From a virus, in the IMG/VR virus record IMGVR_UViG_3300045988_030449, positions 1-37,347 of that record: 37,347 nt of DNA. One strand, given 5' to 3'. Shown here in pieces: positions 3,947 to 37,347 of the stretch. Numbering within the stretch: the stretch's first letter is position 1; every line of letters starts with the position of its first letter. A program made the position numbers and the translations under genes. Under the pieces are notes generated by a model. The model was not told where the DNA came from. It did not search any database and saw only the letters and a list, made by a program, of their open reading frames with translations.

Positions 3947-4903
3947 TTAAACACTTTCTGCGGTGCACAATTTCAAGTATTCAGGAACTGCAAGCATAGC
4001 ATCAGCCGCAAACACGGTTGTACTGTAATACTTACGGTCTTTAGCGTCACGGATGAACGGATCAATAGTCAAACTTGCATCTTCAAGAGCCAACTGAATG
4101 TTAGTTTTCGGAGAGAAAGCAATGAAAGACTGAACTGTCAAAGCGTCGCCCTTAGCGCTGTTAGATACGTGTCTCAACTCGTTCACCTTGTAGCCTTCGA
4201 AGTAGTACGCCGGTTTGCCGTTCTCCATGTTAGCTTGTGCCAAATGGTTGTCCTTAGCTTCAACTAAGTCCTTGTAAGCACGCATAATGTTGCTAGTTAC
4301 ATAGAATTCTGAATCGTCCAGTTGATCGGCGCGCTGGTTGTCGATACACCATTTCAGACACTCCAAAACATTAGCACCAGCTCCGGAAGGAACAAGAGCC
4401 TTAATAGTTTCGGTTGAATCCTGCATCTGCTTGATGATACCACCGTTTTTAAACACCGTGTATACACCTGCCGTATCATTTGTTTTCAAACCGTCCAACC
4501 ATACGAGACGTAACATGTCGGCTTCCAATACTTTCAGAATTTCGTTCTGCATGAACGCTGCCAACTGTGTTTGGTCGAAATCAGCCGAAAGGTGAACGCC
4601 TTTTGCAACCATTTTGCCCCACAAGTCTTGCAGACAAACCACGATAGGCAACTCAATCTGTGCATGATCGTAATATTTAACCTTATCGTTAAGAGAACTA
4701 TACTTGTATTCGCTGTCGCAACCCGCGGAACGTCTTACCGCTTTGTCTGTTGCGGTGAAAGTCAAGATAGGTTTACCCTTTTCAATACCCGCCAATACGG
4801 TTACGCCGTTGGACAATTCGCCCTCCAGCCCAAGTGTCAAAGAAATAACATCGGCCAGGCTGTCGATATTCAATTTGTTTAAATCGCTAAATGTAAATGC
4901 CAT
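3947..4903 (-). CDS. Major capsid protein (318 aa, HK97-fold type inferred)
   Basis: The size, position directly after the scaffold/protease candidate and composition fit a major capsid protein. No catalytic motifs are expected. The call rests on context and by-eye resemblance. Confidence 0.7.
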   Translation of the reverse strand: MAFTFSDLNKLNIDSLADVISLTLGLEGELSNGVTVLAGIEKGKPILTFTATDKAVRRSAGCDSEYKYSSLNDKVKYYDHAQIELPIVVCLQDLWGKMVAKGVHLSADFDQTQLAAFMQNEILKVLEADMLRLVWLDGLKTNDTAGVYTVFKNGGIIKQMQDSTETIKALVPSGAGANVLECLKWCIDNQRADQLDDSEFYVTSNIMRAYKDLVEAKDNHLAQANMENGKPAYYFEGYKVNELRHVSNSAKGDALTVQSFIAFSPKTNIQLALEDASLTIDPFIRDAKDRKYYSTTVFAADAMLAVPEYLKLCTAESV

Positions 4904-16235: not shown

Positions 16236-17408
16236 CTAATCATTATTTGCGTATCTCGGGCGGTATTTACGTATAAGATAATCAACACCGTAGCGCACAG
16301 CGTCCAATGCATGGTTGTAAGCGTCTATCGGCTCGTTGGTGTACGTGTCGGTCAGGTTGTCCTTGACGTAGGTGTAATTGTCCGCCTCGTCCAGTACGTT
16401 AGTGCTCCGCTTCGTCACAAACAAATTGAACTGCTTCACCTGCTGGATGCCCGCCCTTATCGATCCTTTTCCCTTGATGCATGGAATCGTGTTGCATCCT
16501 AGCCCGCGTAGCTCTATGATGCTCTTCTGCTCCGCGTTATCGCATACCGTAATGGTACGGTGTAGTCCTTCGTCCTTAAGCCGTTCGGCGATCGTGCGGT
16601 TCAGCATCTTAGTTTCGTAGCACACTTCGTCGATATACAAGTTCATGCCCCGCATGTAGATCTTGACAATAGCGGTCGGGTCGTTCTGAAAGCCGAAATC
16701 AAGCCCTGTAACGAACTTAACGTCCTCGCCCGATAAATCCTCCGGCAAAGCGTCGATCGTCTCAATTTGGGGATATACGAGGCCTTCCAGCCCGCCTGTC
16801 AGCCCCTCGCCGTATACGCGCCACCAATTAGCGTCCTTGGCGTTCCGTTCGATAGCTTCTACCTGCTGCTTCGACAAATACGGGTTATCCTTGTATGTGG
16901 AGTGGATCGTTACGTACTTGTCGCCTGTGAAGTCCGTCTCCCCCCAGAAGCGACGCACCGGGTTAAAGTCGATAATCACTTTGATCGTGGTACGAACGTC
17001 CAACTGCCGGAATATCTCGCGGGGCACACGTTGCGCCTCGTTGATGAACAGGATGTCACGCGCCGGACCATGAACCTTTGACGCGTTGTCACACCCGAAG
17101 AACTCGATGCACACTCCCGGCTTCACCGTATAGATCAAGTCGGACTTGTTGAGGGCGTTGTCGTCCCACACCCCCTCGTCTAACAGCATGTTCTGAAAGT
17201 CACGGAACATACCACGCTTCACGGCTGGGAGCGTGTCGGTAACACATGAGATCATAAGAGGCTCGGTGCTTTCGCTAGCGACCAAATAGAGGAGCTGTAA
17301 CACACTCCATGTCTTAGATGAACGCGTACCACCTTTGCTCGCTATACCTCTTATATAGGGGTCGCAAAACGGCCCTATCATCTTGTTAAATACGTAGGTG
17401 CAATTCAT
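16236..17408 (-). CDS. terL: Terminase large subunit (390 aa)
   Basis: A Walker A-like motif ASKGGTRSSKTWS is present. The ATPase-plus-nuclease length and layout resemble PBSX/Terminase_3-6 type large subunits. It follows the small subunit with a 1-nt overlap. Confidence 0.88.
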   Translation of the reverse strand: MNCTYVFNKMIGPFCDPYIRGIASKGGTRSSKTWSVLQLLYLVASESTEPLMISCVTDTLPAVKRGMFRDFQNMLLDEGVWDDNALNKSDLIYTVKPGVCIEFFGCDNASKVHGPARDILFINEAQRVPREIFRQLDVRTTIKVIIDFNPVRRFWGETDFTGDKYVTIHSTYKDNPYLSKQQVEAIERNAKDANWWRVYGEGLTGGLEGLVYPQIETIDALPEDLSGEDVKFVTGLDFGFQNDPTAIVKIYMRGMNLYIDEVCYETKMLNRTIAERLKDEGLHRTITVCDNAEQKSIIELRGLGCNTIPCIKGKGSIRAGIQQVKQFNLFVTKRSTNVLDEADNYTYVKDNLTDTYTNEPIDAYNHALDAVRYGVDYLIRKYRPRYANND

Positions 17409-18097
17409 TACTTCTCGTCCTCCTTGTGATCCTTTTTAAAGTTCTTAATCGAGCTAACCTTTGCGCGCACTTTCGGGTCGGTTACATTGACCGTCAAACC
17501 GCCTTTGATCGCTTCGCCGTTAGACGTGTAGTCCATTTGCGTTTTAATGCCCCGTAGCGCACGAACGTAGTTGGCGTCGAACTGTCCCACCGTCGCACCT
17601 TGATCGAGGTCCTGCGCGATCGCTTCGCGTATCCTATCGATCACCTCTATAAAGTCCGCGCATACCGTTAGGTCGAACTCCTTAAGGTTCTCGGCGTAGG
17701 TGGTGCGGCGGTTACGCAAATAGTTGACGCTCGCCCCTAGGAACATGCAGAACTCGCCTTCCGATTGAAGGTGCTTCTTCGGCACTTCGTAGAGCGTCCC
17801 GGCCATGTTACCGGACTTTACCGCCTCCTGTGTTATAACGGGTGTAGCCTCGCACCACGCCGAGTAAATCGCGTAGGCTTCCCACAGTTCCTCCGGCTCC
17901 TGCCAAACAGGCGTTTGACCGAAGTGCGCCGTAGCCAGCTGGTAGCACTTGGTGTAGTTGAACGAATCAGCCAAATACTTGGTGGTCGCGTATGTGGGAG
18001 ACACTTTCAAGTGGGCGTAATCCGGCCTAACCTTCTCGACTTTCGGCAGCTGTACCGCTTCCTTCGTTTCTATAATTTCCTTCTTCTTTGTAGCCAT
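17408..18097 (-). CDS. terS: Terminase small subunit (229 aa from MATKKKE)
   Basis: The central segment GEFCMFLGASVNYLRNRRTTYAENLKEF...VIDRIREAIAQDL matches the Terminase_2-type HTH pattern. It lies directly upstream of TerL. In-frame ATGs also occur at 18151 and 18172, but a TAttTTTG -7 box lies inside that extension. Confidence 0.7.
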   Translation of the reverse strand: MATKKKEIIETKEAVQLPKVEKVRPDYAHLKVSPTYATTKYLADSFNYTKCYQLATAHFGQTPVWQEPEELWEAYAIYSAWCEATPVITQEAVKSGNMAGTLYEVPKKHLQSEGEFCMFLGASVNYLRNRRTTYAENLKEFDLTVCADFIEVIDRIREAIAQDLDQGATVGQFDANYVRALRGIKTQMDYTSNGEAIKGGLTVNVTDPKVRAKVSSIKNFKKDHKEDEK

Positions 18098-18119
18098 ATA
18101 ATTTTTATTTACAACTCTA

Positions 18120-18127
18120 CAAAAATA
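18120..18127 (-). promoter_or_regulatory. Candidate late-promoter -7 box (TAttTTTG) upstream of terS
   Basis: On the minus strand TATTTTTG lies 23 nt upstream of the ATG at 18097. There is no well-spaced -33 TTTG, so factor dependence is possible. Confidence 0.35.
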
Positions 18128-18350
18128 CGTTTTTTCTGCCCAAATTGCCATCTTTACGCCTACCAAAACCATCGTTTACACCTGAAACCCCGATGAACAG
18201 GGCGTTTCAGCCCGATGTAAATGATGTAAATGATAAAAAGGTAGTTTCCCTATAGAATATATTTAAATATTTCCATAATTTCAATAACATTCAATAACAA
18301 TAGTATAATATAGTTAACTGTATTATTACTTATTAATAGTTACTAACTAG

Positions 18351-18440
18351 TATATATCATTACATCTTTTACATATAGTATATATTATATGATAAAGTAC
18401 TATAAATAAGCGATTTAGGTGTAAAAGATACAAATTTTAA
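18351..18440. repeat. Junction element copy A (conserved core), containing the inverted boxes ATCTTTTACA (18364-18373) and TGTAAAAGAT (18420-18429)
   Basis: By-eye alignment to 35874-35967 gives roughly 85-90 percent identity. Weaker homology extends from ~18216 to 18441, matching 35750-35969. Confidence 0.85.
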
Positions 18441-18640
18441 CCTTTTACATCAAAAACTTGAAAAGTGCGTTCTGCGTCTTGTGGGGCTGGTCAGCCGTAA
18501 AACATGAAATGGCAATGTAAAAGACGTTTTCGCTACTTTTTTGTCGAAAACAGGCTTTTTAGTTAAAATACTGTTAAATTCAAACATTCTCTCTAAAAAG
18601 TTTTCTCTCACAAAGTTTTTTGCGAAGCGCGTTAAATTTT

Positions 18641-18692
18641 TTAACTAAAAAGCGTGTTAACGTTTTTATACGAAAACACGCTTTTTAGTTAA
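18641..18692. repeat. Perfect 18-bp inverted repeat (TTAACTAAAAAGCGTGTT / AACACGCTTTTTAGTTAA, 16-nt spacer) just after the last early gene; terminator or protein-binding site
   Basis: The arms at 18641-18658 and 18675-18692 are exact reverse complements. A third copy, CGAAAACAGGCTTTTTAGTTAAAA, lies at 18545-18568. Confidence 0.7.
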
Positions 18693-18698
18693 ATCCAT

Positions 18699-19238
18699 TT
18701 AACAATCCAAGTTATACATAACCTTCCAATCGTCTAAAATATCTTTACATTTCCAACTCGCGGCCCTTTCAATCGTTTTCCATGTCAGCGTCCTACGCTC
18801 TAAAACGCCTAGCGACCTACTGCCATCGCGGTACATATTAACCCGGTACAACATTGAAACCTCTATCCCGTTACGGTTTAGCTCCGTATCTTTACTCGGG
18901 TAGACCGGGCGTTCTATGTCGTCATTCTCATACGGTCCTACGCGCTTCTTGTCCTTGTCACGGTACAGCATATTCTCTACTGTCGGTATACGTTCGGGGT
19001 CGGCCCTCGTGTTCCTGTCGTCCCGTACCTTACTAGCCGCATATAATATATCCCGAAGGGCCTCACAGAACAACGACGCGTTAACCATGTGAAACGGTTT
19101 GCCCTTCACCTTGAGATACTTCACACCGTTCGCTTCAAGCCAGTTGAATATGAAAAACGCGTGTAAATTATATAACTGTGCCATCTCTTCGATAACTAAA
19201 ACTCGTCTCTGTTGCTTTTTAATATATGGTGTCGGCAT
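18699..19238 (-). CDS. Hypothetical protein with an N-terminal excisionase/MerR-like HTH (179 aa); last gene of the early arm
   Basis: VLVIEEMAQLYNLHAFFIFNWLEANGVKYLKVKGKPF fits the HTH_17 pattern. It is followed by a perfect 18-bp inverted repeat and by the late-promoter gap. Confidence 0.55.
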   Translation of the reverse strand: MPTPYIKKQQRRVLVIEEMAQLYNLHAFFIFNWLEANGVKYLKVKGKPFHMVNASLFCEALRDILYAASKVRDDRNTRADPERIPTVENMLYRDKDKKRVGPYENDDIERPVYPSKDTELNRNGIEVSMLYRVNMYRDGSRSLGVLERRTLTWKTIERAASWKCKDILDDWKVMYNLDC

Positions 19239-24679: not shown

Positions 24680-24850
24680 TTATATAACTTCGTAATATCC
24701 TGTAACTTCTGATCTTCTGATCTTTTTCTCCCTTACCAAGGATAACATCGCCTCGCAAAACTCGTTTAGGTCCGTGCAACCTGTGTACTCTAATAATAGG
24801 CGAGCTTTAAATATCCCGGCGTTCATCGCTTCTAAAATTTTCTCTTTCAT
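24680..24850 (-). CDS. Mini winged-helix-like protein, paralog 1 (56 aa)
   Basis: It is not in the track. The sequence is MKEKILEAMNAGIFKARLLLEYTGCTDLNEFCEAMLSLVREKKIRRSEVTGYYEVI. It aligns with the 59-aa ORF at 24892-25071 and is preceded by the same hairpin leader. Confidence 0.5.
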   Translation of the reverse strand: MKEKILEAMNAGIFKARLLLEYTGCTDLNEFCEAMLSLVREKKIRRSEVTGYYEVI

Positions 24851-24900
24851 ATCTTTTGGGTGTTGTGGGCGGTGTTACCCGCCCGGGTTAATTATTTATT
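24845..24900. repeat. Hairpin-leader repeat, copy 1 (GGGCGG-TGTTAC-CCGCCC at 24867-24884)
   Basis: It is near-identical (~55 nt, one 1-nt indel) to 25066-25122. It spans the intergenic spacer and the start codon of a mini-ORF. Confidence 0.85.
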
Positions 24901-25071
24901 TAATGTATATCCGTCTTCGTCTAAAACTATTTTCCCTTCTGTCAATAGTTTCGCAATAGCATCACAGTATTTTCTGTACTCGCATTCGCAACCTACGTAA
25001 GGTATTATGTCTCTTGTCTTCTTTAGTCCGCTACCAATCGCTCTCAAAATTGATTTTTCTAACTTTTTCAT
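24892..25071 (-). CDS. Mini winged-helix-like protein, paralog 2 (59 aa)
   Basis: It is not in the track. The sequence is MKKLEKSILRAIGSGLKKTRDIIPYVGCECEYRKYCDAIAKLLTEGKIVLDEDGYTLNK. It shares the pattern IL.A...G..K.R....Y.GC.......C.A...L..E.KI...E..GY with paralog 1. Confidence 0.5.
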   Translation of the reverse strand: MKKLEKSILRAIGSGLKKTRDIIPYVGCECEYRKYCDAIAKLLTEGKIVLDEDGYTLNK

Positions 25072-25122
25072 ATCTTTTGGGTGTTGTGGGCGGTGTTACC
25101 CGCCCGGGTTAATTGATTTATT
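25066..25122. repeat. Hairpin-leader repeat, copy 2 (hairpin at 25088-25105)
   Basis: It is the same sequence as 24845-24900, offset by 221 nt. Confidence 0.85.
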
Positions 25123-25123
25123 C

Positions 25124-25279
25124 TTATATTTTAGATAAAATAATATACGCGTCCTTTAGGCTAGTCTCGGTTGTTATGCCTAATTTCTTTAGCGGTCTTA
25201 AATCTTTCTGCGTGAAGTAAATGCCTATACAACCTCTCCAGTTATTAAATTCTCCAAATCCTTTTATTAGTTCTAACAT
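25124..25279 (-). CDS. Hypothetical small protein (51 aa from the first ATG)
   Basis: The track ORF starts at a TTG (25321) that lies inside a TAtcTTTG -7 box. The first ATG at 25279 is 40 nt downstream of that box. Confidence 0.4.
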   Translation of the reverse strand: MLELIKGFGEFNNWRGCIGIYFTQKDLRPLKKLGITTETSLKDAYIILSKI

Positions 25280-25318: not shown

Positions 25319-25349
25319 CAAAGATACGACAAGTTATCGGACTACCAAA
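25319..25349 (-). promoter_or_regulatory. Internal promoter (TTTG-N19-TAtcTTTG)
   Basis: On the minus strand TTTG lies at 25349-25346 and TATCTTTG at 25326-25319, in the 73-nt gap after VRR-NUC. Confidence 0.45.
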
Positions 25350-27736: not shown

Positions 27737-27876
27737 ATCTCATTGATTTCAATAATTGATAACCCGTTTTTCAAGTTCTTTTCTACTTGGCGTCTAGCGT
27801 CTTTAACATCCTTTGCCCGTACACCGACCCATGATCGATAAATTTCATTTCCGTAAACTACTTCATAATGTTTCAT
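27733..27876 (-). CDS. Small hypothetical protein (47 aa)
   Basis: It is not in the track. The sequence is MKHYEVVYGNEIYRSWVGVRAKDVKDARRQVEKNLKNGLSIIEINEI. The ATG lies ~33 nt downstream of a TAccTTTG box, and the stop overlaps the next ATG (ATGA). Confidence 0.45.
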   Translation of the reverse strand: MKHYEVVYGNEIYRSWVGVRAKDVKDARRQVEKNLKNGLSIIEINEI

Positions 27877-27908
27877 AATTATAATACTTTAATTGGTTAT
27901 TGTGAAGG

Positions 27909-27939
27909 CAAAGGTATGGTTTATTTTGATACCACCAAA
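27909..27939 (-). promoter_or_regulatory. Promoter of the small-gene block (TTTG-N19-TAccTTTG)
   Basis: On the minus strand TTTG lies at 27939-27936 and TACCTTTG at 27916-27909. The ~60 nt at 27909-27970 are homologous to 35572-35632. Confidence 0.55.
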
Positions 27940-27965
27940 ACTTTTCTCAAAAAACTTTAGTATAT

Positions 27966-28005
27966 TAACAAAAATAAAGTCTCGCGTATCACTACGAAAG
28001 ACTTT
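27966..28005 (-). terminator. Weak terminator-like hairpin after the primase/helicase gene
   Basis: On the minus strand AAAGUCU-(16 nt)-AGACUUU is followed by AUUUUUGUU. The stem is short and AT-rich. Confidence 0.3.
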
Positions 28006-28075
28006 TTAACTGAAAAACCACCCTAAAAGTATTAACCTTAAAAATTAGAAAAGAAAGTATTGTTTTAATTCGGTA

Positions 28076-30466
28076 TCACAAAGATAGTAATTTTTTGCTT
28101 TCCTCGCTACCTTTACGGATATAAATTACTTGTGCGCCGTATAATTTGGTTCTTTTTAACTTTCCTTTATACCATCCGCCTAACTGTCTCATAGCTGTTG
28201 CCAGTTCGCGCCCCTTTGCGCTTGTATAATCTTCCTTGCGCCGGCCTAGCGCATCTACCCAAAGCTCCATTAAACAGAACTCGTTTTTAACCGTGTCTCC
28301 GATCTCATCCAATGATCCCGCTAGGAAATCGGCTCGTTGTTGTTCGGTGCGCTCCTCATAGTCGGCTGGGAAAAGCCTATCTACGTAGTTTTCTATAATA
28401 CCTACTAACGGGCTTTCTTCTGTAAATTCTTCGCGTCCCTCGTTTGCGATCGCTTCGGCTTCGTCAGACAAAACAAGGCTTTCACCCAGCATGTACAACT
28501 CCATTGCTTCCGCCCAAAGTTGGTCTACCACTGCCTCAAAAGACTTTTCAAAAAGTTTGTGCGTGTTCGGGTTGACGCAAACTTCGATCGGGAAGAAACG
28601 GCGGTTTCCGGTCTTGTCCTTCAAAAACTCATCGTCATTAGTAGACCCGAAAAATACGCATTGTCTACGGTGTGTCTTGACGCGTCGCGCGTATGCACTA
28701 CGGTATGTATCTTCACGCTTGCTAATAAAGTTCTTCGTGGCTTCCACGTCCGAACGGCGAAGGGCTGACAACTCGGCTAGCTCCACGATCCAAGCATGCT
28801 GTATCGCTTCGTATGCTTTTTGCCCGGACACGTCCGTTAATGAGTCGTTGAACCAACCCTTTGAAAGGGCCTGTATAAGCGTGGACTTTCCCGCGCCCTG
28901 TCCTGAATACATAACCAGCGCCGTATCAAATTTGCGGCCCGGCTCGTAAACTCTAGTAACGGCCGCAACCAACATTTTACGGAACGCTTCGGACACGTAT
29001 ATACTAGGCTTCGCACCCATGTAGTCAACCAAGAAATTATCAATACGTTTCACGCCGTCCCACCTTTGCGCCTCTAGATATTTTTTGATAGGGTGAAAAG
29101 CGTTTTCGCTGCAAACCTTTTCAAGTGCATCGGTTAATTTGCTGTCATTATAAATACCGTGCAAATCCTCTATACGTCCACGGATAATCGCTACCGCTGT
29201 ATCGTCCAACATATCACCCTTCTTGATGTCCTTCGAGAAGAACGGCGTACGGGTGTACACAATCGTATCAAGAAACAAGTCGTATGCTAACAGATCGTTT
29301 AATAGCGGATCACACTTGAAAGCGTTAACGAAGTTGCGAACGGTACACAATTTATCACCTTTGCGATCTAAATCCCAAACAAGTTCGGCGGCGGTCTGCG
29401 CGTCGCTCTTAACATCGTCCGTGTATTCTTCGAAGTCAGCTAGATCATCGTCCACGGCTACCATATCTTTAACGCACTCTTTATCGGCGCAAATTAGCTT
29501 GTTCATCTCGCGGGTACTGTCTTCCTTACCCAGGTGCCCGAACTTGTGCACACGTACCAAATCATAAGCGTTGTATGCATGTCCGTCGCCTATTGGGTCG
29601 GTTGAATGGTGAGAAAAACAAAGCACGTCGTCGTACACTACCAGCCCGGCAGCGCCCGATCCAAGAACGTACGTATATCGCCCATTTTCCGCTTCTGTGT
29701 AAACGTCCGAAAGGTACTTGTCTATTGCTGCCTGTATCGTGTACGAGCGGCAAAACGCGCCTACCAAACCCTCTTTATCGCGGGGGTCTTTCGCCATCTC
29801 TTTACTAATAATGGCGCGGGTATCGCGTTCTACTTCTGAATGGAATGCCCATTTGCGCACGTCGCGCCATTCTTCATTGTCTCCGTACAAACCTATAAGA
29901 TACTCGGCGCTGATCGGCTCACCTTCGAACACTTCGAAAAGCCCGGTTTGATCTTTGGAAAGAGATTGCCAGTACATCATACGTTCCGGCTGGAATGTTG
30001 TTTTATCAAATAGATCTATACCTAACAACTCGGCTACTTTGCGCGCCGCGGCTTCGTACATCGTAACGTCTGTAACCTCCTCTTTAAACGGCATGATAAG
30101 ACGGTAACGGCGCGATCCGGGACGGTCCGATCTAGTGGTATAAATAGCTGCCGCCACGCCCGGAAAGCGATCTGCAAAATCAAAAGGGAAAAGATCGTCT
30201 CCAAAGTCTACGTCTAGCGTGATCATTGAACGGGACATAACGGCCTTCTTAAGGCGTTGCGCGCCTGAAAGCTCGCCAGCCATGAATCCGCCAACGTCCT
30301 TCAATGACGATTTGGCGGGCTTGTCTAGCCTGTCGAACTCGCGTACCGTTTCGTTAGTGATAACGGGCGTTCCTAGTCTTTCCAAAAACGCTTCCCAAGT
30401 CATGCGTACGGCCTTCCATTTCAGAGACGCCGAAGAACCTGCAAGTGATAAGGTGTATTTTTCCAT
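28076..30466 (-). CDS. Primase / VirE-type (SF3-like) replicative helicase fusion (796 aa)
   Basis: The C-terminal half has Walker A MYSGQGAGKSTL, Walker B WIVELAEL and the VirE-family signatures FGSTNDDEFLKDKTGNRRFFPIEV. The N-terminal ~350 aa are primase-polymerase sized. It starts 1 nt after the polymerase stop. Confidence 0.82.
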   Translation of the reverse strand: MEKYTLSLAGSSASLKWKAVRMTWEAFLERLGTPVITNETVREFDRLDKPAKSSLKDVGGFMAGELSGAQRLKKAVMSRSMITLDVDFGDDLFPFDFADRFPGVAAAIYTTRSDRPGSRRYRLIMPFKEEVTDVTMYEAAARKVAELLGIDLFDKTTFQPERMMYWQSLSKDQTGLFEVFEGEPISAEYLIGLYGDNEEWRDVRKWAFHSEVERDTRAIISKEMAKDPRDKEGLVGAFCRSYTIQAAIDKYLSDVYTEAENGRYTYVLGSGAAGLVVYDDVLCFSHHSTDPIGDGHAYNAYDLVRVHKFGHLGKEDSTREMNKLICADKECVKDMVAVDDDLADFEEYTDDVKSDAQTAAELVWDLDRKGDKLCTVRNFVNAFKCDPLLNDLLAYDLFLDTIVYTRTPFFSKDIKKGDMLDDTAVAIIRGRIEDLHGIYNDSKLTDALEKVCSENAFHPIKKYLEAQRWDGVKRIDNFLVDYMGAKPSIYVSEAFRKMLVAAVTRVYEPGRKFDTALVMYSGQGAGKSTLIQALSKGWFNDSLTDVSGQKAYEAIQHAWIVELAELSALRRSDVEATKNFISKREDTYRSAYARRVKTHRRQCVFFGSTNDDEFLKDKTGNRRFFPIEVCVNPNTHKLFEKSFEAVVDQLWAEAMELYMLGESLVLSDEAEAIANEGREEFTEESPLVGIIENYVDRLFPADYEERTEQQRADFLAGSLDEIGDTVKNEFCLMELWVDALGRRKEDYTSAKGRELATAMRQLGGWYKGKLKRTKLYGAQVIYIRKGSEESKKLLSL

Positions 30467-30467
30467 G

Positions 30468-32468
30468 TTAATCTTTCTTATAATAATTACTAGTGAATCC
30501 TTCTGCCTTCAACGGAATACCGAAAGCGTCTGCCCATTTCGGTGTTACTGCCATAGCTTCGCAAATCTCATTTAGTGATACGGTTGGCTCGCCAAAATCA
30601 TCTAAAGGCACTTCGTTTACCGTCTCGTCGTGGATATGTCCCACGATCTTAACAGCCGGGTAACGCTTTACAATTTCCTGCATGCCGTATGCCAATAGGT
30701 CGCGGCTTACTGCCTGCGTAATATTTTCGGTTAGCTTCCCGCCGTATGTGTCTAGGTCCGCCCATTTTCCCGTAAGGTCTTGACCCTTGTATGTTATAAC
30801 TTCCCTGTCTCGTCCATTCACGCTTTTCGTAGCGATCCGGCAAAACGGGTAAAACAAACGACGGCCCGAAGGTAATAAAATTGCTAGAGAATTGTTTTCT
30901 TTAAACCATTGAAATGTACAAACGTGTACGCCGTACCGGATAACCTCTACGTCTTTCTTGTTACGAATACAGAGTTTAGCACGGCTGTCTAGTGCCTCCC
31001 AAAACTCAACTATGCGTGGAGAAGCCGCGCGCCATCTCAATATAATATCCTTGTACAACGCCGGGTTTATAGCATTCTCGTAGTCCATCGCAGCCATAGC
31101 ACCCACCCAACCGGCATAGCCTAGCGCTAGCTCTGTTACTTTACCCTGTTGGCGGTAATGAGTACCTTTGCCGCATTGATCCTCGGGCAAACTGAACGTC
31201 ATACTAGCGGACACTACGTATATATCTTTTCCGTTGCGGAACGCTTCAATACGCCAATCTTCACGGCACAGGCACGCCAGTACACGGGCTTCAATAGCCG
31301 AATAGTCGGCGACATGGAATGTAGTGCCCTTGGGGGCTACAAACGTTGTTCTGATAAGCTGCGATAACGTGTCAGGTACATTTCCCCAGAACAATTCGAA
31401 GTCCTGCAAACTCATGTGTTTAACGTTATCACGCGCGCCGTCAAGGTCGTGTATATAGTTACGCGGTAGGTTCTGCATCTGGACTAGTCTACCCGCCCAT
31501 CGTCCAGTACGACCCGCGCCATAGAAACGGTACAAACCGTGTACGCGTCCGTCAAAGCACACGCAATTGCGCATCGCGGTATATTTGGCGTTGCTAGTCT
31601 TGTTTATGATCTTTCGGGCGTTTAGTACTTCGTCTACCCGCTCGTTGTCGCATTCCTGCATAATGGCGTCTATGTCCTCTTTCCGGAACGAATCAAAAGA
31701 CTTTCCGGTTTGGATCATTACAAAGTCCTTTAGTTGCATGGTGGACTTTAAAGAAGATATGCCGTACTTCGTCTTAATACGATTCTTAAGAGTTTCGCAA
31801 AACTCTTCGTTGAGAGCGTCCGCCCGTTCTGCTAGTTCCATGTCTACGGCGATACCGTTGTCGTTAATGTCTTGATCTAGCCTGTACAGGTCTATTTCCG
31901 ATTGCGGGAACTTGCAATAGTCTAGGCGTGCCAGGGCTTCGCGCTCCGAAAGAATATCATAACGAAGGTAGTCTATAAATTCTTCCCATTTGTCCGGGTA
32001 ATCTCTCGGATCATTCTGGTACCCTTCCGGGTCCGCTTTGGTCGGCTTCTGTGGTTGGCAGAAGAATTTTATAAGGGCTAGCCCTGTACCCTTCTTGCCT
32101 TCTTTCAAATCGAGCGCTTTAGATAGGTTTCCCAGGCTCTCCGGGAATCCGGCGTATAACGCCATAGTTGCGGTACATAGGAAACGTTCCGCGGGAATAT
32201 TGATGCCGTATGCCATCAAACACAACCGTTCAAACTGTGCATTGTGCGCCACGATCATATATTGCTCGTCTAGTATCAGGTTGGTGAAATCTGTAAATTG
32301 ATCGTAAGCGTCCGGTTTAGTCATATCAACTATATTAACCGCGCCGTCTCCGACCGCGTAGCCGATAAGGAGTATCTCGAAGTCCGGCGATTGCGTATAC
32401 CGGTACGCTCCGCCGCTCTTAATGTCCTCGCTTGAATAAGTTTCAAAATCTATATAAATTGGTTTCAT
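30468..32468 (-). CDS. polA: Family A DNA polymerase with an N-terminal 3'-5' exonuclease (666 aa)
   Basis: Motifs seen are Exo I YIDFETYS, Exo II HNAQFE, Pol motif A DYSAIEARVLA, motif B RQQGKVTELALGYAG and motif C HIHDE. I chose the ATG at 32468 (MKPIYIDFE). The track extension to 32501 begins with GTG inside a terminator-like hairpin. Confidence 0.93.
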   Translation of the reverse strand: MKPIYIDFETYSSEDIKSGGAYRYTQSPDFEILLIGYAVGDGAVNIVDMTKPDAYDQFTDFTNLILDEQYMIVAHNAQFERLCLMAYGINIPAERFLCTATMALYAGFPESLGNLSKALDLKEGKKGTGLALIKFFCQPQKPTKADPEGYQNDPRDYPDKWEEFIDYLRYDILSEREALARLDYCKFPQSEIDLYRLDQDINDNGIAVDMELAERADALNEEFCETLKNRIKTKYGISSLKSTMQLKDFVMIQTGKSFDSFRKEDIDAIMQECDNERVDEVLNARKIINKTSNAKYTAMRNCVCFDGRVHGLYRFYGAGRTGRWAGRLVQMQNLPRNYIHDLDGARDNVKHMSLQDFELFWGNVPDTLSQLIRTTFVAPKGTTFHVADYSAIEARVLACLCREDWRIEAFRNGKDIYVVSASMTFSLPEDQCGKGTHYRQQGKVTELALGYAGWVGAMAAMDYENAINPALYKDIILRWRAASPRIVEFWEALDSRAKLCIRNKKDVEVIRYGVHVCTFQWFKENNSLAILLPSGRRLFYPFCRIATKSVNGRDREVITYKGQDLTGKWADLDTYGGKLTENITQAVSRDLLAYGMQEIVKRYPAVKIVGHIHDETVNEVPLDDFGEPTVSLNEICEAMAVTPKWADAFGIPLKAEGFTSNYYKKD

Positions 32469-32490
32469 GTTTTTAGGGGTTTTTAAAGTT

Positions 32491-32524
32491 AAAAGCCGCA
32501 CCGCTTCTACTCGGCACGGCTTTT
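32491..32524 (-). terminator. Intrinsic-terminator-like hairpin between the SSB gene and polA
   Basis: The minus-strand RNA reads AAAGCCGUGCCG-AGUAGAA-CGGUGCGGCUUU. That is a ~12-bp stem including 2 G-U pairs, followed by UUUUAACUUU. It lies 23 nt upstream of the polA ATG. Confidence 0.55.
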
Positions 32525-32597: not shown

Positions 32598-33173
32598 TTA
32601 AAATGGAACGTTCATTCCGAACGGGTCGTCGTTTTCATCACTCAAATCGTCGAAGTCGTTGACGCTTGATCCGCCATCTAGTCTATCATCATCGGTTACT
32701 TTCTGTATTCCGTTCAATCCGGAGGTTATACCGCGGTTGTCGGCGCTCATGTTGTAACCGTAAATTGAGATGGAAGCCACGCCCCAAGAGCCGGAATACA
32801 TATCCTCTTTCACTGTGATCGGGCGTTTACCCTTGTCGATTACGATCGGTTTACCGTGTTCCTCCTTGCGCTTCGCCACGATGTAGTAACATCCTTCATA
32901 CCCGGCTTGTCCTTCTTTCTCCGGCGCATCTCCATCCCGTAATGGGCTTTTAAAATTTGCAGGTACTTGTCCCTTGAATTTTGGGTCCCTTGAAAAATAA
33001 TCCTGTGCTTCTGCCTTAACCGCGTCATTGATTTGCTTAATCAAAGCTGTATCCGTTTTAGGAATCAACAAGGTTACACTGTAATGAAATTCACCCACAC
33101 CTTGATACTGTTCTGCCTCGAAAACTCTTACATAAGAGAAACGTACGTTTTTTAAGATCAATTTTCTACTCAT
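32598..33173 (-). CDS. DUF2815-type single-stranded DNA-binding protein (191 aa)
   Basis: The sequence starts MSRKLILKNVRFSYVRVFEAE and has an acidic tail DDFDDLSDENDDPF ending in F. It lies between a DUF2800-type nuclease and PolA, as in the known DUF2800/DUF2815/PolA module. The ATG lies 32 nt downstream of a TAtcTTTG box. Confidence 0.72.
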   Translation of the reverse strand: MSRKLILKNVRFSYVRVFEAEQYQGVGEFHYSVTLLIPKTDTALIKQINDAVKAEAQDYFSRDPKFKGQVPANFKSPLRDGDAPEKEGQAGYEGCYYIVAKRKEEHGKPIVIDKGKRPITVKEDMYSGSWGVASISIYGYNMSADNRGITSGLNGIQKVTDDDRLDGGSSVNDFDDLSDENDDPFGMNVPF

Positions 33174-33204
33174 AATTTTTAAGATTTTAATTTGTTTCAC
33201 GGTT

Positions 33205-33234
33205 CAAAGATATTGCTTTATTTTAAACTTCAAA
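33205..33234 (-). promoter_or_regulatory. Promoter upstream of the SSB gene (TTTG-N18-TAtcTTTG)
   Basis: On the minus strand TTTG lies at 33234-33231 and TATCTTTG at 33212-33205. The spacer contains the same AAAATAAAG core as the other early promoters. Confidence 0.55.
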
Positions 33235-34436: not shown

Positions 34437-35002
34437 TATAGACGGCTTGAAATGTATGCAACAAAATCGTTAAACATATCTTCCTTCAACGTCGGGAAAC
34501 TGGACGCGCCTACGCTTTCGAAAGCTTCCTGTACAATCGGACGTTTCTTCGCGTTTAGCGCCTTCATAGCCCACGATTTACAATCGTCGATAGTGTAGGA
34601 TGCTGCGTCACATTTAGGCGCTTTAGGCTCTTCCACGGGTGCCGGTGCGGGTTCTTCAACCTTTGCGGGTTCTTCAACCTTTGCAGGCTCTTCAACGGGT
34701 GCTTGCTCTTCAACGGGTGCTGGCTCTTCTGCCGGTGTGGGTTCTTCTACTGGTGCGGGCTTCGTGGCACGTCTAGCGCGGGTCTTGGCGCGCTCCGACT
34801 CTACCATCTCGGCCACTGTCTTGGGCTTCTCTTCGTCCTTCGCTTTTGTTGCTTCTACAACCGCGTCCGCCAACTTGTCGAGATCGGTTTTATGTTCCGT
34901 TACTTCTGGTACGGCTTCTCCCGCCAGCTCGCGCAAATAGTTAGATGTTGCTAACAAAGATTCTTTACTCTCATTTCCGATTAATTCGATTACTACTTTC
35001 AT
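34436..35002 (-). CDS. Highly acidic early protein with seven P-x-x-V/A-E-E hexapeptide repeats (188 aa)
   Basis: The repeat reads PAPVEEPTPAEEPAPVEEQAPVEEPAKVEEPAKVEEPAPAPVEE and is encoded by 18-nt tandem repeats at ~34626-34760. By rough count E+D far exceeds K+R. Confidence 0.6.
   Translation of the reverse strand: MKVVIELIGNESKESLLATSNYLRELAGEAVPEVTEHKTDLDKLADAVVEATKAKDEEKPKTVAEMVESERAKTRARRATKPAPVEEPTPAEEPAPVEEQAPVEEPAKVEEPAKVEEPAPAPVEEPKAPKCDAASYTIDDCKSWAMKALNAKKRPIVQEAFESVGASSFPTLKEDMFNDFVAYISSRL
34626..34760. repeat. 18-nt in-frame tandem repeat (~7 units, e.g. GGTTCTTCAACCTTTGCG x2)
   Basis: Read directly from the sequence. It encodes the P-x-x-V-E-E hexapeptides of the 188-aa ORF. 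Confidence 0.85.
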
Positions 35003-35178
35003 TTTTTCTTAAAATTAAAAATTGTTTCTAATAGTTCATTTTTGTTCACTCTGATCTTGCCCGTTCCATTCTCATACCGGGTGAGCCTTCCGGCGTTGAG
35101 TTGGTAGCGTATGGCATTTTCGGTGCACTCCGCTAACCGGGCGGCTTCCGCCACTGTGATAAGTTCTACTTTTTCCAT
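34999..35178 (-). CDS. Excisionase/MerR-like HTH DNA-binding protein (59 aa)
   Basis: It is not in the track. The sequence is MEKVELITVAEAARLAECTENAIRYQLNAGRLTRYENGTGKIRVNKNELLETIFNFKKK, which fits the classic HTH_17 pattern. It shares an ATGA overlap with the next gene. Confidence 0.6.
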   Translation of the reverse strand: MEKVELITVAEAARLAECTENAIRYQLNAGRLTRYENGTGKIRVNKNELLETIFNFKKK

Positions 35179-35571: not shown

Positions 35572-35601
35572 CAAAGGTACAGCTTTATTTTGAACTACAA
35601 A
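35572..35601 (-). promoter_or_regulatory. Early promoter, Bacteroidota type (TTTG-N18-TAccTTTG)
   Basis: On the minus strand TTTG lies at 35601-35598 and TACCTTTG at 35579-35572. A second -7-like box, TAaaTTTG, lies at 35548-35541. The first ATG is at 35495. Confidence 0.55.
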
Positions 35602-35873
35602 ACTATTTCCCAAAAAACTTTAGTAATTTAACTCTGATTAACGGTTTTGAAGGTTTGATAACGGTGTAAATGAAGAACAGCCCTTTTTAAGCGGATCTTT
35701 ACGCCTTTAACTGCGTGCGTATCAGTTAGTTAAGTGGCAAAAACGGGTGGAATGTAAAAGGTAAGAGATAGTTTTCTATAAAGTTTAAAATCAAATATTT
35801 CTATAAATTCATTCACATATTAATTCATATATTTACATATTTTATATATTATATTACTATTTCATTCTTATCT

Positions 35874-35967
35874 CTATATATCATCTTTACATCTTTTACA
35901 AATGATATATATTATATGGTAAAGTACTATAAATAAGCAGGTTAAGTGTAAAAGATACAAATTTTAA
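35874..35967. repeat. Junction element copy B (conserved core), containing the inverted boxes ATCTTTTACA (35891-35900) and TGTAAAAGAT (35947-35956)
   Basis: It is a direct-orientation homolog of 18351-18440, lying 17,523 bp away. Confidence 0.85.
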
Positions 35968-36062
35968 TCATTCACAAGCAAAAACGCCAACTCATTAAGA
36001 ATCAGCGTTTTAAGTTTTCAAGTGCAAAAGATGAAAAGGCGTTTGTGAAAGATGAAAGGGCG

Positions 36063-37048: not shown

Positions 37049-37347
37049 TTTTCAAATGTTTTATAAAGTCCAAATATTTAGTATTAATCAGCATATCCAG
37101 TACCGCGATAAATTCGTTATCCGGCTGGATCTTCTTGAAGTTACGGATAATATTTTTAGAATACACCAACGCAAATAACGTTGTAAGTAATCGTAATAAG
37201 TCCGTATAGTTCCCTTCCGGCTCTATAAGCCGTGCGGCTGCCGCCGTGAACAGAATCACGATCGCCGCGATCGCATACTCGAAAAAGGCATGGAAAGCCT
37301 TTTTGTGGCTATATTTTTCACCAGCCTTTAAACCTGCAATAAGTCCC
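36936..37347 (-). CDS. Holin-like protein, C-terminal part. This is the same gene as 1..174; bases 37293-37347 duplicate 1-55.
   Basis: The open frame runs ...EKYSHKKAFHAFFEYAIAAIVILFTAAAARLIEPEGNYTDLLRLLTTLFALVYSKN... to a stop at 36936. It overlaps the endolysin start by 113 nt in another frame. Confidence 0.55.
   Translation of the reverse strand, partial: GLIAGLKAGEKYSHKKAFHAFFEYAIAAIVILFTAAAARLIEPEGNYTDLLRLLTTLFALVYSKNIIRNFKKIQPDNEFIAVLDMLINTKYLDFIKHLKNAKLYNPGANRVSNSGGEEEDQQRSDTGSSGESETVS
37293..37347. repeat. 55-nt terminal overlap identical to bases 1-55
   Basis: Exact match read from both ends of the window. Confidence 0.95.

Follow-up and report, generated by a model that had tools for sequence, protein, structure and literature searches.

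The 37,347-nucleotide stretch analyzed here (IMG/VR record IMGVR_UViG_3300045988_030449; hereafter the window, meaning the whole stretch) is the genome of a Bacteroides ovatus-type phage, and the records nearest to it, BK687P3, BO1 and BKR1 among them, are of cultured Bacteroides phages with B. ovatus, B. kribbi and B. koreensis as hosts. Bases 1-55 are repeated exactly at 37293-37347 and, because of this terminal overlap, we regard the assembly as circular and the genome as complete at ~37,292 bp. All of the credible genes are on the minus strand, on which gap B (36062 to 35496) is followed by the early/replication block (35495 to 18699), gap A (18698 to 18098) and then the late genes (terS, terL, tail, capsid, portal and lysis), which reach back to gap B. 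Each gap contains one copy of an element, copy A (18216-18524) and copy B (~35750-35985), situated, with respect to the coding strand, past the end of one operon and ahead of the start of the next. We consider that these copies probably represent a duplicated iteron-type replication origin, or helicase loading site. An earlier note on this DNA had described the gaps as the only two large non-coding gaps in the genome; at 601 and 567 bp they are indeed the largest, but there is a third of 339 bp at 27737-28075. The statement that the element holds no open reading frame (ORF) was likewise correct for long ORFs, although short ones, all of ≤53 amino acids (aa), are present. Gap A is 82-88% identical in the closest cultured phages, where it is mostly unannotated, and in the GenBank records of relatives both gaps are blank or have short hypothetical ORFs only.

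The two copies are in direct orientation. A repeat finder matched 18356-18456 to 35883-35983 with 85% identity and no gaps, and a BLAST comparison of the window against itself extended a weaker homology (~75%) over ~235 bp (~18224-18457 versus 35752-35985), as had been expected from inspection by eye. The finer features noted previously were all present, namely the 10-nt inverted pair ATCTTTTACA (18364-18373) and TGTAAAAGAT (18420-18429) with 46 nt between them, the additional octamers at 18442-18449 (minus strand) and 18516-18523 (plus strand) and the 9-nt tandem at 18214-18240. The basic unit of each copy is a box of ~10 bp, TGTAAAAGAT and its variants, and the boxes are arranged as follows:

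18148-18182, minus strand: copy A outlying boxes GGCGTAAAGATGG and GGTGTAAACGATGG (18148-18160 and 18169-18182)
18216-18234, plus strand: copy A left iterons, two overlapping tandem boxes, TGTAAATGAT, with a 9-nt period; a degenerate third unit extends to ~18242
18241-18353: copy A AT-rich spacer, 113 bp, 18.6% GC, proposed DNA unwinding element
18356-18373, minus strand: copy A opposed tandem iterons ATCATTACATCTTTTACA, that is, TGTAAAAGAT plus TGTAATGAT
18374-18419: copy A center, 46 bp, AT-rich and partly palindromic
18420-18449: copy A inverted pair, TGTAAAAGAT on the plus strand (18420-18429), a 10-nt A/T spacer and TGTAAAAGGT on the minus strand (18440-18449)
18494-18527, plus strand: copy A outlying boxes CCGTAAAACATG (weak) and ATGTAAAAGACG
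35663-35704: copy B outlying boxes GGTGTAAATGAAG (plus strand) and GGCGTAAAGATCC (minus strand), upstream of the canonical early promoter at 35572-35601 (minus strand)
35753-35762, plus strand: copy B left iteron TGTAAAAGGT, one clean box, then degenerate units
35777-35882: copy B AT-rich spacer, 13.2% GC, holding the most AT-rich 110-bp window of the genome
35883-35900, minus strand: copy B opposed tandem iterons, two boxes, ATCTTTACATCTTTTACA
35901-35946: copy B center, 46 bp, AT-rich
35947-35976: copy B inverted pair, TGTAAAAGAT on the plus strand (35947-35956) and TGTGAATGAT on the minus strand (35967-35976)
36021-36055, plus strand: copy B outlying boxes GTGCAAAAGATGA and TTGTGAAAGATGA

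The boxes are strongly enriched in the gaps. The octamer TGTAAAAG occurs eight times in the 37-kb genome, with 1.8 occurrences expected, and all eight are in or beside the two gaps. Seven lie within the gaps versus 0.13 expected (none of 5000 dinucleotide shuffles of the gaps reached seven), and gap A alone has four versus 0.07 expected in such shuffles. Local AT composition, which the earlier note had named as an explanation that would refute its observation, does not account for the octamers, since the shuffled gaps have an expectation of only 0.13. Similarly, when the genome was scored with a position weight matrix built from the gap boxes, sites scoring ≥12 occurred only inside the two gaps, eight of them in A and six in B, and three 9-mer GTAAAGAT boxes come in addition. 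The most AT-rich pair of 110-bp windows in the genome falls in the two spacers, these having 12.7% and 15.5% GC versus 46.6% overall.

Both the box arrays and their architecture are kept in the two copies and in several clades of relatives. The loci of the relatives were retrieved through the protein sequence of the helicase described below, and not through the element, so that there was no selection for boxes; loci L001-L025 were left out of the conservation claims because they had been chosen by an exact 22-mer that includes a box. As the element sequences within the near clade are too alike to contrast boxes with spacer, we relied on maps across clades, which are listed here with the identity of their helicases to that of the window:

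Window clade: helicase 90-97% identical, box TGTAAAAGAT
L076: helicase 86%, box TGTAAAAGAT
L078: helicase 74%, box TGTAATAGAT
L077 and L059: helicase 68-69%, box TGTAATAGAT
L079: helicase 68%, box TGT[AC]ATAGAT
L062: helicase 69-70%, boxes TGTCACAGAT, TGTAATAGAT and TGTCACTGAT

The word varies by clade around the common core TGTnAnnGAT. Wherever the gaps fall on the contigs of relatives, the element was found in both of them with the same layout, which is thus common to four to five clades: plus-strand tandem boxes, an AT-rich spacer (106-139 bp, 13-19% GC), minus-strand tandem boxes, another ~45 or ~56 bp rich in AT, a plus-strand box and a minus-strand box. Across clades, 112-139 bp separate the left boxes from the opposed tandem, and either 44-45 or 54-58 bp lie between that tandem and the next plus-strand box; the box-to-box distance across the center of copy A, 56 bp, differs from the 44-45 bp of other clades by about one helical turn. 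The AT-rich spacers could not be aligned between clades above the noise floor of ~65% for such composition. Based on the fact that short oriented words and their spacing are kept while the spacer is constrained by composition only, the element appears to be a protein-binding array around an unwinding region, a pattern that is unlike that of an RNA gene or a promoter.

A short hairpin is present between the outlying boxes and the left tandem at 18182-18210 (CTGAAAC...GTTTCAG) and at 35708-35730 (TAACTG...CAGTTA), and also at the same place in gap B of L062 (GACGCCTAAC...GTTAGGCGTC). Its position is kept across copies and clades and its stem sequence varies; another protein may bind there, or the hairpin may be a signal for single-strand initiation. 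Metagenome contigs of relatives end in the equivalents of gap A or gap B, often in or near a box (L078, 14369-14623; L079, 1-331 and 15391-15656; L081, 11476-11817), and it is probable that the two homologous elements break the assembly graphs of this phage family.

Our candidate for the protein that binds the boxes is a 796-aa VapE-like helicase of superfamily 3 (SF3) in the early block, which also encodes an HTH_17-like 59-aa protein, a DUF2800 nuclease, an Enc34-type single-stranded DNA (ssDNA)-binding protein, a family-A polymerase, a VRR-NUC-type endonuclease, an SNF2 helicase and methylases. The genes of most relevance here are:

28076-30466, minus strand: 796-aa VapE-like (SF3) helicase, proposed initiator
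28079-28438, minus strand: codons for the helicase C-terminal domain, residues 677-796, winged helix
28133-28135, minus strand: codon for helicase residue 778, in the wing
30468-32501: PolA-type polymerase
32598-33200: Enc34-type ssDNA-binding protein
17408-18097, minus strand: terS, with copy A directly upstream

The helicase and its C-terminal domain are homologous to the Rep proteins of the Staphylococcus aureus pathogenicity islands (SaPIs). Its core matches the Pfam VapE-like domain (E 9e-76), and for the first ~345 residues there are matches to PHROG families with a DNA primase annotation, PHROG helicase families being matched as well. The sole significant match among solved structures was PDB 7PDS, SaPI1 Rep1 (phmmer, E 9e-73), and 7pds was also the top Foldseek match of a model of a helicase fragment, even though that model is poor in the ATPase core. 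An AlphaFold2 model of the C-terminal domain alone (residues 677-796) had a predicted local distance difference test score (pLDDT) of 85.6 and has a helix-helix-helix arrangement with a beta-hairpin after it. Its best Foldseek match was the C-terminal domain of SaPI1 Rep1 (E 5e-5, template modeling score 0.64-0.68, root mean square deviation 2.9 Å, chain A), after which came a tail of non-significant matches to winged-helix proteins. The C-terminal domain also diverges faster than the remainder of the fragment compared (residues 341-796), having 57% versus 69% identity to the distant clade. The SaPI Reps are self-loading SF3 helicase-initiators in which a C-terminal winged helix binds iterons, and 7PDS is a complex of SaPI1 Rep1 with DNA (PMC9371898).

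The type of box co-varies with a residue in the wing of this helicase. Genomes of the near clade have boxes of one of two flavors, TGTA-type throughout or TGTC-type (e.g., TGTCAAAGAT, with the core tandem ending in GACA). In a discovery set of 32 related genomes, classed by the base at box position 4 as A-type (21) or C-type (11), we scanned 1,404 variable positions in 32 window proteins against box class (2,932 tests). The top position was helicase residue 778, situated in the beta-hairpin wing (...KLYG[A/R]QV...), with arginine in 10/11 C-type and 1/20 A-type genomes (Fisher p 2.6e-6). In 5000 permutations of the labels the best p was never as low, and its median was 0.004. Supporting this association is its replication in 13 cultured isolates outside the discovery set, for which residue 778 was specified beforehand (p 0.0014): TGTC-type core boxes accompanied R778 in nine of nine isolates and TGTA-type boxes accompanied S or A778 in four of four. 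Residue 771, the runner-up within the discovery scan, failed to replicate in these 13 isolates. The next-best position anywhere was terS residue 54 (p ~3e-4), ~70-fold weaker than residue 778, and some association of terS is to be expected because it adjoins copy A. Physical linkage fails to explain the result for residue 778, since the two elements are 7.4 and 9.6 kb distant from its codon, and genes closer to them have associations at least 70-fold weaker. R778 was found on several recognition-helix backgrounds. Neither the HTH_17-like protein (best p 0.12) nor the small proteins flanking the gaps co-varied with box type.

The recognition helix was also considered as the determinant of box type and was rejected, as AMRQL and AIRQM each occur with both box types in the near clade. 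Little weight can be given to the change from AMRQL to a K-containing helix between clades because it is a single phylogenetic event. For a test of the R778 rule in distant clades, P0015 had no relatives in the viral collection and the P0046 contig ends one box into the gap.

The suggestion in the earlier note of an origin with iterons is therefore supported by the anatomy of the element, by the presence of a SaPI-Rep-like helicase-initiator and by the co-variation of the boxes with the wing of its winged helix. SaPI origins have an AT-rich region flanked by iterons, at least two per side, in opposite directions (PMC9371898). The same layout is present in the phage elements, with the left set of copy B comprising one clean box, and their box numbers are consistent with the approximately six to twelve short iterons per origin of the SaPI type. 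For their initiators, Rep or PriRep, SaPIs use self-loading helicases of the SF3, VapE-like type that end in a winged-helix domain, and the phage encodes a sequence and structural homolog of Rep1 in the same genome as the boxes. In SaPI5, primase and Rep are fused in one polypeptide, and the phage helicase likewise has a primase-annotated N-terminal part. The correspondence between initiator specificity and cognate iterons that typifies SaPIs is also seen here, in statistical form only. There are differences, however, in that SaPIs are satellite islands with boxes of 5-6 bp, whereas the window is a phage of a cultured sewage-phage family whose hosts are of the phylum Bacteroidota and its boxes are ~10 bp, with two copies of the element roughly opposite on the circle and an extra inverted-box module in each.

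A possible precedent for the two copies, by analogy, is the Bacillus phage SPP1, in which oriL and oriR each have repeats plus an AT-rich unwinding element and are both bound by one phage initiator, the second copy having been proposed to stall forks and in this way to bring about the change from theta replication to concatemer synthesis (PMC6316719). The window shares with SPP1 the possession of two similarly organized repeat-plus-AT-rich elements per genome, and SPP1 oriR resembles the phage elements in being intergenic and bracketed by transcription signals. Unlike the arrangement here, SPP1 oriL is inside gene 38, and its initiator, gp38, uses the loader gp39, the DnaB-type helicase gp40 and host polymerases; scans of the larger early proteins of the window identified the VapE-like helicase, PolA, the Enc34-type ssDNA-binding protein, the SNF2 helicase and the DUF2800 nuclease. 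Phage P4 also has separate cis elements, ori and crr, with the same short iteron, both of which are recognized by the C-terminal DNA-binding domain of the alpha primase-helicase. The P4 crr, however, is a pair of ~120-bp direct repeats and not an ori-like module, and the origin-binding domain of P4 alpha was absent from the significant Foldseek matches of the helicase fragment and of its C-terminal domain.

Under this origin model, the C-terminal winged helices of the VapE-like helicase would recognize the ~10-bp boxes (TGTAAAAGAT in the window; core TGTnAnnGAT), and helicase assemblies would load at the opposed tandem sets flanking the spacer of 106-113 bp and 13-19% GC and melt it. Synthesis would then be begun by the primase-annotated N-terminal domain, the PolA-type polymerase and the Enc34-type ssDNA-binding protein. 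The second module (the opposed boxes around the 46-bp center) and the outlying boxes would contribute cooperative binding, and may couple occupancy by the initiator to the adjacent early and late promoters. Both copies may fire, or one may act as an enhancer or a fork barrier.

Several points weigh against this interpretation. Binding of the boxes by the helicase, melting of the spacer and the start of replication at the element are steps that we infer from sequence. SaPI origins are immediately downstream of rep, whereas the phage elements are away from the helicase gene, ~5 kb upstream and ~9.6 kb downstream of it. The model of the helicase fragment has a pLDDT of 59.8 with a poor core, the C-terminal domain being the only part that was modeled with confidence. 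In the association analysis the box classes were chosen after inspection of the data, the genomes scanned share ancestry and the non-R replication isolates represent only two lineages of the C-terminal domain. In addition, residue 778 does not follow a simple code in the distant clades, where T is found together with A-type boxes in L076 and, in L079, together with mixed ones. GC skew declines near-monotonically around the genome, which is uninformative as an indicator of an origin because all of the genes are on one strand. Lastly, the same boxes reach the promoter-proximal parts of both gaps, which would fit a role in transcription as well.

Transcription signals at the gaps bear on the last point. 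In agreement with the earlier note, in which none had been found, there is no Bacteroidota-type promoter in the element: all five matches in the genome to the consensus TTTG-N-TAnnTTTG (-33 TTTG and -7 TAnnTTTG at canonical spacing) are outside it, and TAnnTTTG was not found at 18128-18698 or 35606-36062. Canonical promoters occur elsewhere, at 35572-35601, 33205-33234, 27909-27939 and 25319-25349. Gap A has a lone -7-like motif, TATTTTTG, at 18120-18127 on the minus strand, with no canonical -33 TTTG, and the outlying boxes at 18148-18160 and 18169-18182 are ~38 and ~60 bp upstream of the late start inferred from this motif. Such positions are typical of activator sites, and in L076 the spacing differs by about one helical turn. 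The start of terS itself is ambiguous, being 17408-18172 in the long form, which is that annotated in BO1, and 17408-18097 in the short form, which is that of BK687P3, BKR1 and the L076 gene call; the long form, from the upstream ATG at 18172, would overrun the -7-like motif and two boxes, and gap A would then begin at 18173. We also considered a promoter between the inverted boxes, where TTAAAATTTGT is -7-like on the coding strand, but discarded it, as the 69% clade lacks the TTTG and only 11-12 nt separate the motif from the upstream TTTG. The sequence AAAATTTG between the inverted boxes is not kept in the distant clade.

These observations raise the alternative that the elements are operator or enhancer arrays that set the switch from early to late expression through a phage DNA-binding protein on the arrays ahead of the early operon (copy B) and the late operon (copy A), for example the helicase or a small regulator such as the HTH_17-like 59-aa protein (34999-35178), with no role in replication needed. 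The placement of the elements at junctions between operons on the coding strand is compatible with such arrays, as are the outlying boxes so close to the inferred late start; with canonical promoters elsewhere and no canonical -33 in gap A, the late operon may therefore need an activator. However, the main array is centered 150-400 bp from the early promoter, and opposed tandem sites around a freely drifting spacer of ~110 bp and 13-19% GC typify an unwinding element rather than an operator. The box type, moreover, tracks the helicase wing and neither the HTH_17-like protein nor the small proteins beside the gaps. Among the helix-turn-helix proteins that had been put forward as binders, that at 34999-35178 gave a sub-threshold HTH_17 match and the rest were without a match. 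The operator proposal is compatible with an origin as an added role, which the boxes beside promoters keep open, and competes with it only in its exclusive form, which we regard as the main rival but as rather unlikely. Because boxes are close to promoters, the initiator of the proposed origin may also influence transcription. More speculatively still, the two copies may tie replication to the expression program, one protein and one 10-bp word timing both synthesis and the early-to-late switch; we think this somewhat less likely again. The late genes would then be activated by initiator bound to the outlying boxes ~38 and ~60 bp ahead of their promoter, which has no -33, and the copy by the early promoter would be an autoregulatory site or a fork barrier that switches the mode of replication.

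The other functions that had been proposed for the element received less support. A pac recognition region bound by the small terminase would account for the location of copy A directly upstream of terS, terS residue 54 is second-best in the association scan and headful packaging would fit the circularity of the assembly. A pac site would, however, be a single region at or near terS, whereas copy B, which is no less conserved, is ~17.5 kb away beside the lysis and early genes, the terS association is far weaker than that of the helicase wing and is expected from adjacency to copy A, and we know of no described pac layout with opposed iterons around an AT-rich spacer, making this function very unlikely. 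A structured non-coding RNA gene, or other cis-acting RNA, seems to us more improbable than any of the others. The inverted boxes do fold modestly (z-scores, -1.7 on the minus and -2.3 on the plus strand), but such folding follows from their being inverted, and the apparent covariation of the arms is the same 10-mer box in two orientations. The element had no match in Rfam 15 at gathering score, permissive E-values matching only generic hairpins at 18630-18705 outside it; there is no Bacteroides-type promoter in or directly before it, and it is the short boxes and not the long spacer that are kept between clades. That the direct repeats might serve mainly as boundaries for module exchange or recombination is consistent with the likeness of the paralogous copies, which is 77-79% in both the window and L076 versus ~70% for positional orthologs across clades (noise floor ~65%), and with three metagenome contigs of relatives that end inside the gaps. 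The copies are usually also concordant in box flavor (TGTA or TGTC), which suggests concerted evolution through exchange between the copies, a shared binding protein, or both. As paralogs are closer than positional orthologs, exchange between the copies is probable, and recombination survives as a side effect. As the main function, however, it would not yield box words that co-vary with a protein domain, a recombination substrate needs no oriented 10-mer arrays with kept spacing and exchange between direct repeats would split the genome in two, so we hold it to be a very improbable explanation of the element.

Other repeats were found in and around the gaps. A second family, approximately AAAGTTTTTTGnnGAAA, or TTCTCAAAAA on the other strand, is present at 18533-18554, 18595-18633, 27940-27969 and 35602-35632. 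Repeats of this type are located past the early operon and before the element is reached, also in the early-proximal part of gap A of L062, L076 and L078, and immediately ahead of the -33 box in canonical early and middle promoters. Just past the stop codon of the last early gene are two near-perfect hairpins (18640-18693 and 18537-18568; 24-nt arms, 92% complementary) which are terminator-like but without a clean T-run on the coding strand, and for which permissive Rfam searches returned only generic miRNA-like hairpins. Within the early block, a 67-nt direct repeat (24842-24908 and 25063-25129, 88% identity) contains the G+C-rich hairpin GGGCGGTGTTACCCGCCC, and in each copy the repeat extends over the beginning of a small ORF (24680-24850 and 24892-25071). 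The arrangement resembles a small-gene cassette that has been duplicated together with a terminator-like hairpin of its own. Among the late genes, a 21-nt tandem repeat of ~4-5 units of CTTCTGCCGGGGCTTCCGGTT (1897-1997) falls within ORF 1781-2269 of the minus strand and would be translated as a short repeated peptide, and L062 has a related 15- to 18-nt repeat at 1-75 and 4654-4755.

A search of the literature by isolate names and for Bacteroides phage origins found no replication origin described for this phage family, which comprises cultured isolates of B. ovatus, B. kribbi and B. koreensis and many gut-metagenome contigs. Iteron origins served by SF3 helicase-initiators are already known; what is new here is the different phylum, the longer boxes, the two copies at both operon junctions and an initiator gene that is not adjacent to them. 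The duplicated element probably accounts for the breaking of assemblies of these phages at two fixed places, and its interpretation as an origin predicts the positions of read-depth peaks during infection. Residue 778 and box position 4 together provide a rule, open to direct testing, for the specificity of the winged helix in VapE- or Rep-like helicases, initiators of a class that is very widespread but has been poorly characterized. If our interpretation is correct, a defined origin and its cognate initiator would be of use in engineering phages and in constructing phage-dependent replicons for Bacteroides.

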